Shown piece after piece: positions 27,406-56,346 of a stretch of DNA of 64,000 nucleotides (position 1 is its first letter; each line of letters opens with the position of its first letter). The stretch covers positions 14,012,001 through 14,076,000 of the forward strand of contig OU015566.1 in NCBI GenBank assembly GCA_907165135.1, read 5' to 3'. The position numbers were made by a program, and so were the translations under genes. A model generated the notes under the pieces. That model was not told the origin of the DNA. It saw nothing but the letters and a program-made list of their open reading frames with translations, and made no database searches. The stretch comes from Oikopleura dioica (Eukaryota > Animalia > Chordata).

Positions 27406-30400
27406 TTAGTAGTAGGAGCGGGTGGGTGGACTTACTCCTCGACTGGCCACTCGGAGACGCGACAGTTCGCTGGCCAGGCCATTTTCAGCGTCCCTAGTTT
27501 ACAAGAGCTAGTTGCAGGGTTAAGCTTTGGCTTGATTTTCGTTGTAATGGAAGATATGAAAAAAACGGGTTTAAAAAGGATCTGATGATTCGAAAATGAA
27601 GCGGAAAAAAGCCTTAAAAACTTAAGCGAAAGGAGGGTTAGTTAAACGTAAGTAAGCATCTGTAAAAGATAAAACTTAGGGAATAAATCTACCTTGCGAT
27701 TTGAGCCGCGCGGCTTCGAGTCACCACACCACCGGATGATCCCACCAACAAGCCACTAAATTTATCAATTTAGTAACACAAATAAAAGCTCAAAAATCAT
27801 ACCTATCCTCTTTTTCCAACTCTCCAACTCTGTGCCTGTACTTCTGCGCCCTGAGACGGTCTCCTTGTCCCGGATCCTCGTATCCCTCAAAATCAAGTCC
27901 AGAAGTTCCGTTGTTCTGCTCGTCAATTTCCAGCACTGGCGATTTCCTCGTCGTCGAGGGGCTCTGTCGCAGTTTCTGCAAGTCGCCGTCTTGCCACATC
28001 AAATGCTGCTGCTCCTCTAGCCAGTGTTGCTGTGGCCCGAGGACTGAGCCTGGGCGACAAAGACGAAGCCAAGCGATCGCTTCTGCCGCCGTGAATTTGT
28101 AGTGCTTCATCAGGTAGCACGCGATCAAAGAGCCAGTACGCCCTAGAATTAAAATTAGCAGTCATTTTCCGATGCTAGGGTCAATTCTTTTGACGGGAAA
28201 AGAGAATTTAATTTCAGACAAGTGGAAAAAATTTAAAGAGATAAGAAAAGGAGCCATACCTAGACCAGCCTTGCAGTGAATAGCCGCCGCGCCGTTCATA
28301 TTTTCGACGACCTCAAGGAATCGCTTGAGAATGTGGTCTGGAGGACAGCTTCCGTCGGTAAAGAACATGTCGTGGTGCTCGAATCCGCCGTCTGAAGGTC
28401 AAAGTTTAAAATTTGAAATCAAGGAAGAATATCGAACGGACCTGTGAACCGCTGAGCTGGGTAGATCTTCTTGTTGAGTCGAATGACAGTATTGATGTTG
28501 TGCTTTCTGAAGTAGGGAAAGTACGCTTCAGGCGCGTGTAGAGGGTAGCCGTTTTCGATCTTTGACTTGGGATGGGGGCCGGAAAAGGCCAGGAACTTAT
28601 TGGGGACGATCCAGTTGAAGTCGCCGTTTTCGACGCGCTCGTAGTACTCGTATTCTTCAACATCGAGAGTTGCGAAGTCAACAAAGTTGTGCTGCAGCGC
28701 CTTTTTTAACCCGTGGAAGCAGTCGAGCAGGGAGAGGTTGTAGGTACACACGCCGAAGGAAGCATCGCTGAAAAGAAAAGGTTTTCTAGATTCTTGGGCT
28801 GTAGTTTCTAGTCTTAGGCGCTTTCTCTTTTTTGAAGTTAGTTTCCCTTTTTAGCAGACATATAAAAGAGGATTTTCTGTTAAAAAATGGGAGCGGATCA
28901 GTCATCAACCTCGAAGTTTGAGAATTGTGACGATGTTAAAGTCGTCAATATCGCTCCACGGTAAAAAAACAAAATTAAGGTTTAATTTTTGGCTAAAAGA
29001 ATCTTAGAATTTCTGGCAAAGATGCGAATTTCCTGAAACTCGAACTAGGTCAACTTAGGGAAGAAATCACCGAGCTCAAGGCTCTCGTAGAGAATAAGTC
29101 AAAGAAGAAAGCGAAGAAAGAAGTATTGGGATCCAGCCTTGATCATACTACGGCGTAGCCGATGCCTAACGCGTGTTAAAGCTTACCAGTTAATGCGCGT
29201 TGAACGATAGCTCTAACTGGCTGTTGAACGATAGCTCTAACTGGCCGTTGAACAAAACCTCTAACTGCCGGTTAAGCGAGTTCGGATACATATATAAACC
29301 TGACACTTTTCACTGAAAATCATCAGAGCTGAGAGATAAACGCTCGAAATGAAAATAAATAAGACACAGAGATAATATTGTTATTGTTATTATTATACAG
29401 GTATGATATAGTTGGACCTCAACATTTTGGTGTCAGAAGTTATAAAAAGATCCCCTCCAATTATAATTATATTAAATTGTATAATTTTCGTTTATAAAAT
29501 TATGCATTATAACTTTTAGGTACTAACAATGAATTAAAAGAAATTAATATAAAGTTTTTTTTCTCTAAAACCAATCCTTAAAATAAAATTTCTCAATAAT
29601 CAAATAACTTTTAGGAGATGTACGATTAGGGGAATGCCATCATAATTACAAAAACACATGCCGTCAAAAAAGTATGAATACAGTATTGGTATTTGAGGAG
29701 ATATGAATTAAAATACTGGCGTTAAATCATCATTAAAGAATAGAAAAGTTAAAGAATATGAAAACAAAGGGTCATTTCCTTTCGACTCACGGCCCTAGCG
29801 CATGTTTATTTTTCGATGCCTCTAATTCCAAAATACTGTTATACACTAAGGCGGTCAAAAAGGGAAAGTAACCAGCCAAAGACAACAAACAAAAATAACA
29901 AATTCGGGTATATAAAGAAGCACAATCTTCATTTCATTCAGGTTTTCGGAAAATCAGAGAAAATCGAAGAGAATAAAAGAAGACGAATTAAAGAGAAAAG
30001 CAAGTAATCGAAGAAGTGAGATGGAGAAGAAGCTTAAATGGCCGACCGTGCGCGGCCGATTGACCGAATTTATCAACAAAGGATGCTGTAAGAAAAATTC
30101 ACTATTCGGTAGAATGGAAGAAGCTACAACGAATGCCTCCCATGTAACAAAGGTAACTCGGTCAACCGGTGGGTAGCCTAATACTCGAGAGGAATGTAGC
30201 TATGTATGATATAAATGTATGGCTTCTCTAAATCACTCCTCAAAAAGGTTCCTGACCCTTGTGATGGACAAATGAATGGTTATCCTTGGATAAGGGGGGA
30301 TGGAAGGTTCTGATAATTAAGAAATTCTTGAAAAGGCAAATGTTCTTCCTTATTCCAGCGATGCTCCTTAGATGATTACTCACACGATGGGTCATGACCT

Positions 30401-56346: not shown

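Follow-up and report, generated by a model that had tools for sequence, protein, structure and literature searches.

How does a long terminal repeat (LTR) retrotransposon come to measure 26.4 kb in Oikopleura, which has one of the most compact animal genomes, and how could the genes that it carries be expressed? The locus that raises these questions lies in a stretch of 64,000 nucleotides of Oikopleura dioica (contig OU015566.1, positions 14,012,001 to 14,076,000, assembly GCA_907165135.1; “the window”, in whose coordinates all positions are given), where the element occupies 29124-55558. The reading that we favor, and hold to be fairly likely, is that of a giant Tor element that has grown by capture of host RNA and whose accessory genes are expressed in the manner of an operon, via splicing and spliced-leader trans-splicing.

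The element is 26,435 bp long, about three times the length of its relatives, with an interior of 25,833 bp. It has the features by which Ty3/gypsy elements are known: two LTRs, a target-site duplication (TSD), a primer-binding site (PBS), a polypurine tract (PPT), and gag followed by protease (PR), reverse transcriptase (RT), RNase H (RH) and integrase (IN) in this order. Its boundaries are as follows (X numbers denote sequencing runs, L numbers metagenomic loci).

29120..29123, plus strand: left TSD, GAAG; a single GAAG stands in the empty allele of X1, X2 and X3
29124..29424, plus strand: 5' LTR, 301 bp, TA...CA, with TATATA at 29291 and AATAAA at 29354
29223-29315, plus strand: core of the 5' LTR, apparently common to other elements in the genome (depth 235-408 and loose ends in X1 and X2)
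29428..29440, plus strand: PBS, its start identical in relatives L001-L004
55241..55257, plus strand: PPT, its junction to the LTR present in X2
55258..55558, plus strand: 3' LTR, identical to the 5' LTR
55559..55562, plus strand: right TSD, GAAG, found by direct comparison

A repeat scan and direct comparison found the two LTRs, 301 bp each, to be 100% identical, in agreement with the first-pass annotation of this sequence, which had seen no mismatch between them; their termini read TA...CA, not TG...CA. The GAAG duplication on both outer sides, the PBS and the PPT that it had listed are likewise all present. The PBS, TGGTGTCAGAAGT, begins three bases past the 5' LTR and is presumably of the tRNA-Leu type, and the PPT is a 17-nt purine tract directly before the 3' LTR. 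Excision of the element with one GAAG restores, as had been claimed, both a 519-nt minus-strand intron of a CDC14-like gene (so called from its translation) and, on the plus strand, an unbroken ORF of the host. An internal repeat search for nested independent insertions found neither a nested LTR pair nor an insertion bounded by terminal inverted repeats within the element. The CDC14 intron also harbors, on the strand opposite to CDC14, a small host gene that is itself spliced (28887-29123 and 55563-55650, plus strand); the 47-nt GT-AG intron of this gene and its uninterrupted junction are visible in X3, and on this haplotype it is disrupted by the insertion.

Short-read contigs of four runs were compared with positions 27700-47600 of the window. 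In X2, a single contig spans 29404-47600 (18.2 kb) with no differences and no gaps, and its end is projected to 49083, beyond the compared range and one base before the first 31-mer that lies wholly within the spliced leader described below. A loose end of X2 at the start of the LTR reads as the purine tract, and is thus the junction between PPT and 3' LTR. The empty junction, in which 29123 is followed by the letters from 55563 on with a single GAAG, occurs in three of the four runs (X1, X2 and X3), so the empty CDC14 allele that the first-pass annotation had proposed to look for exists. As both filled and empty alleles are found in the contigs, the insertion is real and polymorphic, and the 26.4 kb arrived recently as a single unit. 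The six pieces of X1 shown on the element match it without a difference, and of the sampled words of 44000-53500, 0.85 are present in X1 and 0.85 in X2. Flank-to-LTR junctions of the filled allele were not among the contig rows shown for the four runs.

That an assembly or amplification artefact has joined an ordinary element to host sequence is hardly credible. In its favor, the support comes from short reads, with contigs compared up to 47600; against it, the X2 contig shows no difference over 29404-47600 and has its projected end at 49083, the PPT-LTR junction is present, most of the sampled words of 44000-53500 recur in two runs, and no joining of genomic DNA can produce an ORF headed by a spliced leader.

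Further observations concern the runs themselves. X1 was considered as a second insertion site, with the element at about half the flank depth and another flank haplotype; this was rejected on account of a minority window-type flank allele and of in-element loose ends that lie at GATC sites, like ligation junctions. Because of that minority allele, X1 is no evidence of a second site. X3, although labelled “DNA?”, shows spliced joints in host genes and therefore behaves as RNA; on the element it gives a few low-depth pieces (depth 3-6, four shown), of which strand and level are unreadable. The small word shares of X3-X6 (0.06-0.10) were not used as evidence. Contigs branch at the LTR core (X1-X3), and those of X2 also at 29604 in the leader and at 45953, the end of the second of two 117-aa paralogs; this branching points to related elements elsewhere in the genome.

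The family of the element can be read from its gag and pol genes.

37050..38396, plus strand: gag, 448 aa, with a CCHC knuckle, homologous to gag of L001-L004
38260..42173, plus strand: pol (PR-RT-RH-IN), in the +1 frame relative to gag, whose end it overlaps; L001-L005 have the same arrangement

Pfam confirmed the gag CCHC motif and PR, RT, RH and IN, in gypsy order; over 5.3 kb, every catalytic motif is preserved and the long frames stay open. The domains named in the first-pass annotation thus stand, but pol is not one ORF: it has two interruptions. The RT matches a protein named O. dioica OKI2018_I69 chr1 g3804, and the nearest proteins are clusters with two named O. dioica pols: AAT48677.1, which we take to be a Tor pol (45% identity in RT/RH), and CBY14844.1, presumably one as well (42% in RT/RH, 43% in RH/IN). 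In a quick tree of 54 rows (the window and 53 of 280 candidates, near-duplicates and most rows below 33% identity having been dropped), the window, these two pols and P0176 form a group (SH-aLRT 99) that is nested in a wider marine clade. A pol tree, of the kind that had been suggested as a check, therefore sets the element among O. dioica Tor pols, and not in the new class of retroelement that had been entertained. As its pol groups with O. dioica pols and its relatives have accessory ORFs, the element is, by its pol clade and at the family level only, a Tor-family (Ty3/gypsy) LTR retrotransposon, from a clade prone to accessory genes. CBY14844.1 (P0318), the named O. dioica pol closest in integrase, lies on a 26,998-bp contig, about the size of the element, which could be chance.

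From 47801 to the purine tract (7.4 kb), the element consists of broken host-like coding pieces, where the earlier description had assumed intact accessory genes.

48227..49050, plus strand: CKAP5/TOG-like decayed piece, a lead only (PDB E 1.3, not significant)
49054..49093, plus strand: complete 40-nt Oikopleura spliced leader (40/40 match, 0/100 shuffles)
49096..51710, plus strand: decayed host-mRNA retrocopy with mannose-6-phosphate-receptor-like domains (CI-MPR E 2.1e-9)
52700..53961, plus strand: adaptin-N-like decayed piece, weak (Adaptin_N E 2.2e-4, below the curated cut-off)
54163..55230, plus strand: animal haem peroxidase, 5'- and 3'-truncated (Pfam E 1e-49; aa 215-573 of P0160)

The spliced leader, identified by comparison with the sequence given in the cited part of PMC6883708, is followed by GG and then by the ATG at 49096, with no GT donor; hence 49054-49093 is not a spliced-leader RNA gene. 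Leader and ORF become joined in this way only when an mRNA is trans-spliced and matures, which means that the piece was taken up as RNA. Capture of a mature host mRNA is shown for the 49096 piece only. This piece reads, in order, a signal-peptide-like start, the receptor-like domains and a helical region, with frame shifts, and an A12 run stands at 51839; over 652 codons its frame meets 6 stops, whereas the two alternative frames meet 28 and 36. The peroxidase piece is intronless for about 760 bp, then has a frame break, and ends at the PPT. PDB searches with 48503-49087 and with the antisense ORF at 52112-52453 gave nothing significant; the latter, on the minus strand inside the tail, is a 114-codon frame of coiled-coil character.

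The tail is decayed while the LTRs are identical, and its decay therefore predates the insertion. The large form thus probably descends from a parent that was itself large, with the tail already in place.

The remaining cargo differs from the tail in that its frames are open.

29425..37049, plus strand: 5' accessory block of about 10 ORFs, mostly orphans (stop-free frames and a RING match)
42341..47800, plus strand: 3' accessory block, with hydrophobic ORF 42463, the pair 42762/45591, ORF 43501, a thymidine kinase and RING-H2 ORF 47332
44834..45491, plus strand: thymidine kinase (TK), TK1 type, three exons, with P-loop, DEGQF and both CxxC motifs present

About 16 accessory ORFs fill some 13 kb, all on the plus strand, with about 10 before gag and about 6 after pol. 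The estimate of some 15-20 accessory genes thus holds insofar as there are many extra genes, TK and RINGs among them, but the last 7.4 kb that it had included are the decayed host-like fragments. ORFs of the 5' block start at 30444, 31446, 32137, 32357, 32846, 33402, 33965, 35326, 35990 and 36462, at a spacing of 13-340 nt; the one at 32846 has a RING at E 1e-8. Stop-free frames of at least 100 codons cover 74% of the plus strand of this block versus 14% of the minus strand, and stop-free coverage of the 3' block is 37% versus 19%. The paralogs 42762 and 45591, of 117 aa each, are 62% identical over 104 aa, with a ratio of nonsynonymous to synonymous divergence (dN/dS) of 0.16 when taken over 100 codons and of 0.22 when taken over all 117, dS being about 1.7. 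Judged by these ratios, the pair is under purifying selection, and at least these two are therefore maintained genes. A gene-poor part of the 3' block has direct repeats at 46435-46701 that are AT-rich, short (44 and 28 nt) and spaced by about 150.

The identified accessory products are two RING proteins and one intact TK, and the remaining ORFs are orphans, without a match in Pfam, PHROGs, Atlas or fold searches. In PHROGs, 19 proteins gave nothing below E 0.007; Atlas had no usable match for P0158, and an Rfam scan found no match. AlphaFold models were poor (pLDDT 56 and 33), and fold searches with the pLDDT-56 model returned generic helical matches (best Z 7.7, none at E<=0.001).

Large viruses often encode TK and RING ligases, and the first-pass annotation had spoken of a large-virus toolkit and of a possible endogenous virus. 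We regard it as very unlikely that the element is an endogenous infectious virus with accessory genes from large DNA viruses. In its favor are the TK and the RING ligases themselves, the TK exon 2 (52 aa), which matches viral contigs at 44 loci with 33-62% identity, and two small hydrophobic ORFs in the element. However, these exon 2 matches are uninformative on origin, the enzyme is of ordinary TK1 type and scores alike against cytosolic animal TK1 and viral enzymes, and it has two predicted GT-AG introns of host size; a viral origin of the cargo is not borne out. No Env was recognized, with no family match and no long transmembrane glycoprotein ORF among the scanned ORFs, of which many remain orphans. 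The viral contigs held no relative of the RT, of P0318 or of ORF 30444, and the sole piece of cargo with a visible route came from a host mRNA.

If the element is no virus, is it a working retrotransposon? The two interruptions of pol bear on this.

39179..39271, plus strand: predicted pol intron 1, 93 nt, GT-AG, containing stops, between PR and RT; skipped in the annotated P0001
40504..40577, plus strand: predicted pol intron 2, 74 nt, AG/GA...AG, inside RNase H and absent from relatives; alternatively an inactivating insertion

The pols of the relatives are uninterrupted. At the second site, the alignment of three relatives stops at 40506 and picks up again, in a different frame, at 40575; the match to the Pfam RNase H model is interrupted at model position 52 and carries on from there behind the insert; and the insert, bounded by AG/GA and AG, sits exactly between two codons. 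According to the cited part of PMC7072748, GA-AG introns with an AG before the donor are frequent in O. dioica, and according to that of PMC4402516, GA donors are used in the splicing of Tor3a env. The predicted TK introns, at 45108-45146 (39 nt) and 45306-45345 (40 nt), are near the host median of 49 nt quoted from PMC8008620. If real, the introns would have been gained in this lineage, at least those of pol. As to autonomy, the Pol motifs are intact, yet pol has two predicted introns, for which no RNA joint was seen.

These data also bear on the view of the element as a one-off, non-autonomous chimera, in which the 74-nt interruption inactivates pol, a single recombination gave rise to the large form, and its mobility was supplied in trans by a related Tor. 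It could draw on the single locus, the singleton protein clusters, a GA-AG intron without RNA support, and an LTR core and leader common to other elements in the same runs; moreover, LTR-flanked retrocopy chimeras are often non-autonomous, according to the section cited from PMC5131818. Yet we judge it improbable, in view of the intact motifs and frames, the fit of the insert to the codon boundary and the two similar introns of the TK. The paralogs are deeply diverged yet constrained and therefore have a long history, and the X2 branch at 45953, by one of them, hints at a related element with that gene.

For the giant Tor element, the letters ahead of its accessory ORFs suggest how these might be expressed. 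ORF-opening ATGs stand behind a YAG[R] acceptor in 8 of 24 cases versus 11 of 216 other ATGs (p 1e-4), and seven of the eight acceptor-adjacent starts read AG/A; there is no such excess on the minus strand (0/10), in the host flanks (2/64), in L001-L004 (2/25) or in the tail. YAG[AG] occurs within 13 nt of the start in 12 of the 17 listed starts, at a background of 17%. In O. dioica operons, the spliced leader is added at AG acceptors that have no partner donor and most often precede an A (PMC6389100, part cited), and the accessory ORFs have an operon-type layout, with the same strand, close spacing and acceptors (by a post hoc motif) at their 5' ends.

The same giant Tor element could instead make its accessory mRNAs by cis-splicing from the LTR leader or by transcription from internal promoters, without trans-splicing, which we think unlikely. 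Both routes are described for Tor env, the former in Tor3a and the latter in Tor3b/4b (PMC4402516, section on expression cited here), and the acceptor motif is identical for cis and trans. One TCTAGA, a male promoter motif of O. dioica by the cited account of PMC6389100, lies directly before ORF 42762. However, TCTAGA shows no enrichment, at 0.30 vs 0.37 per kb, and the 13-340 nt same-strand spacing with AG/A by the ATG resembles host operons.

On the operon-like reading, transcription from the 5' LTR would yield an RNA of about 26 kb, to be reverse-transcribed from a tRNA primer. The unspliced RNA alone would be the genome that is copied, because copying of spliced RNA would erase four introns. 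Unpaired AG/A acceptors before the accessory ORFs would receive the spliced leader and give each ORF a separate mRNA, so that trans-splicing would lift the usual limit on gene number per LTR element. The tail would stem from template switches onto co-packaged host mRNAs, a form of capture documented in animals (PMC5131818, as cited); it would have decayed in an earlier copy, and the large form would have been copied at least once more. By analogy only, synthesis of so long a cDNA might draw on the TK for deoxythymidine triphosphate, and host proteins might be the targets of the RING proteins. Splicing, trans-splicing and the autonomy of the element are what we infer. Of the intron-split pol, the operon-like blocks and the retrocopy tagged by the spliced leader, all absent from the first-pass annotation, only the tagged retrocopy is directly demonstrated.

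Several points weigh against this reading. A splice joint within the element was seen in none of the four runs over 27700-47600; X3 covers the element thinly, and the RNA run X10, which had no usable reads on it, has no bearing on expression. The acceptor motif was chosen by eye before testing and cannot separate trans- from cis-splicing. An RNA of 26 kb would have to pass 18 AATAAA hexamers and many acceptors, and a protein protecting unspliced RNA was not identified in the element. Only one insertion site is shown, and the X1 copy may be the same allele. The RT, gag, ORF 31446 and ORF 42762 form singleton protein clusters, and no homologue of an accessory ORF was found in the 24 related loci. 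Finally, the one search for a donor gene, with the peroxidase among proteins of 455-2000 aa, gave a best match of 47% and nothing near-identical from O. dioica, and so identified no host donor.

A bolder form of the reading would make this the first seen member of a giant autonomous Tor lineage, with spliced-leader operons through which one LTR drives about 16 separate accessory genes and a pol with introns, and with an unspliced ~26-kb RNA copied whole; the element would continue to gather host mRNAs, some of them becoming maintained genes. We advance it tentatively, as a possibility on the doubtful side. If true, it would rank with the longest LTR-element interiors and offer a natural system for intron gain and gene capture.

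The host flanks hold many pairs of inverted repeats that resemble miniature inverted-repeat transposable elements, at 1053-1455, 2806-3284, 8894-9059, 10039-10281, 15759-16001, 26433-26684 and 56746-56935. A 35-nt repeat family at 8933-9017 recurs near 20743-20848 and 59613, and tandem arrays at 17363-17666 and 58735-58992 have an 18-nt unit and AGCTG-based units of 41-56 nt.

Direct records of an LTR element taking up a mature mRNA as far as its 5' end are rare, and the embedded spliced leader is one of them. Predicted introns in the pol of an element that replicates through RNA make both intron gain in Oikopleura and the separation of spliced from genomic RNA testable. If the accessory genes are trans-spliced, retroelements could become giant by way of the host's operon machinery, a prediction that extends to other trans-splicing animals.

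Among known systems, the Tor elements of Oikopleura (AAT48677.1 and CBY14844.1; PMC4402516, as far as cited) share with the element the pol clade, PR-RT-RH-IN, a 4-bp TSD, near-identical LTRs, a polymorphic insertion and GA donor introns. Unlike Tor, it has about 10 ORFs before gag, an interrupted pol, no recognized env, a TK, RING genes and a retrocopy tail, and it measures 26.4 kb versus the 8.5-9.1 kb between LTR ends of two env-bearing O. dioica elements with both LTRs in the supplement of PMC13524379, whose cited part describes env-bearing larvacean elements of ordinary size. The first-pass annotation knew of no described Oikopleura Tor of such size or cargo, and in the literature searched, likewise, neither a giant Tor nor a multi-gene LTR element with trans-splicing appeared, though an earlier mention in the founding Tor paper or in supplements is conceivable.

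Five of the 24 metagenomic loci returned as relatives, L001-L005, belong to the clade of the element. These marine loci (with P0018-P0020) resemble it in homologous gag/pol (33-39%) and in the +1 gag/pol overlap, and L001-L004 also in the start of the PBS and in having two to three accessory ORFs behind pol (two-transmembrane, Cys-rich, COE/EBF-like). They differ in that they are 7-10 kb contigs with an uninterrupted pol, gag close behind the PBS and no accessory gene in common with it; L002 appears to hold one whole unit of about 9.2 kb. In L001 (6504-8739) and L002 (6813-8957), a two-transmembrane ORF and a Cys-rich RING-like ORF follow pol, and a second PBS-like motif lies about 320 nt behind the first. 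An uninterrupted COE/EBF-like ORF stands behind pol at L004:7796-8881, in an element of about 10 kb, and from its domains (COE1_DBD E 1.8e-20 plus HLH) is likely to be a captured developmental regulator. L006 (6618-8030) and L008 (7791-9089), of another gypsy clade, have a long third ORF and then ankyrin-repeat ORFs.

LTR-mediated retrocopies, in the account cited from PMC5131818, are likewise partial host mRNAs from several parents, flanked by LTRs and open to further rounds; there the retrocopy replaces part of the element's ORFs, whereas the present element has kept gag-pol and added 7.4 kb, one piece of which retains its trans-spliced leader. Cer1 of C. elegans, with CERV, is similar in being a gypsy element with a spliced accessory gene and an unspliced genomic RNA to export, and sets a precedent for a regulator of such export (PMC10309623), as the part cited of PMC5408684 does for the capture of accessory ORFs; a CERV-like protein was not identified in our element, and Cer1 is not described as giant in the part cited. 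Plant Ogre elements are also large, with spliced transcripts reported (PMC6431247 and PMC3735527, parts cited), but have LTRs of 1.9-6.5 kb, an 11-13-kb interior and one to two extra ORFs (PMC6431247), against LTRs of 301 bp here. Nearest in size is planarian Burro/GYPSM1, with an interior of about 25 kb and ubiquitination-linked extra domains; the 25.8-kb interior described here equals the largest LTR-element interiors in the cited part of that 2019 review (Burro, up to 25 kb; PMC6431247). There, Burro has one polyprotein of about 4,900 aa with env homology and thousands of copies, whereas our element, with one known insertion and short LTRs, has a separate gag of 448 aa, a pol of ordinary length and many small separate ORFs in place of a single product of about 5,000 aa. 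Its gigantism is thus of a different design, built of many small genes and neither of one polyprotein nor of long LTRs.

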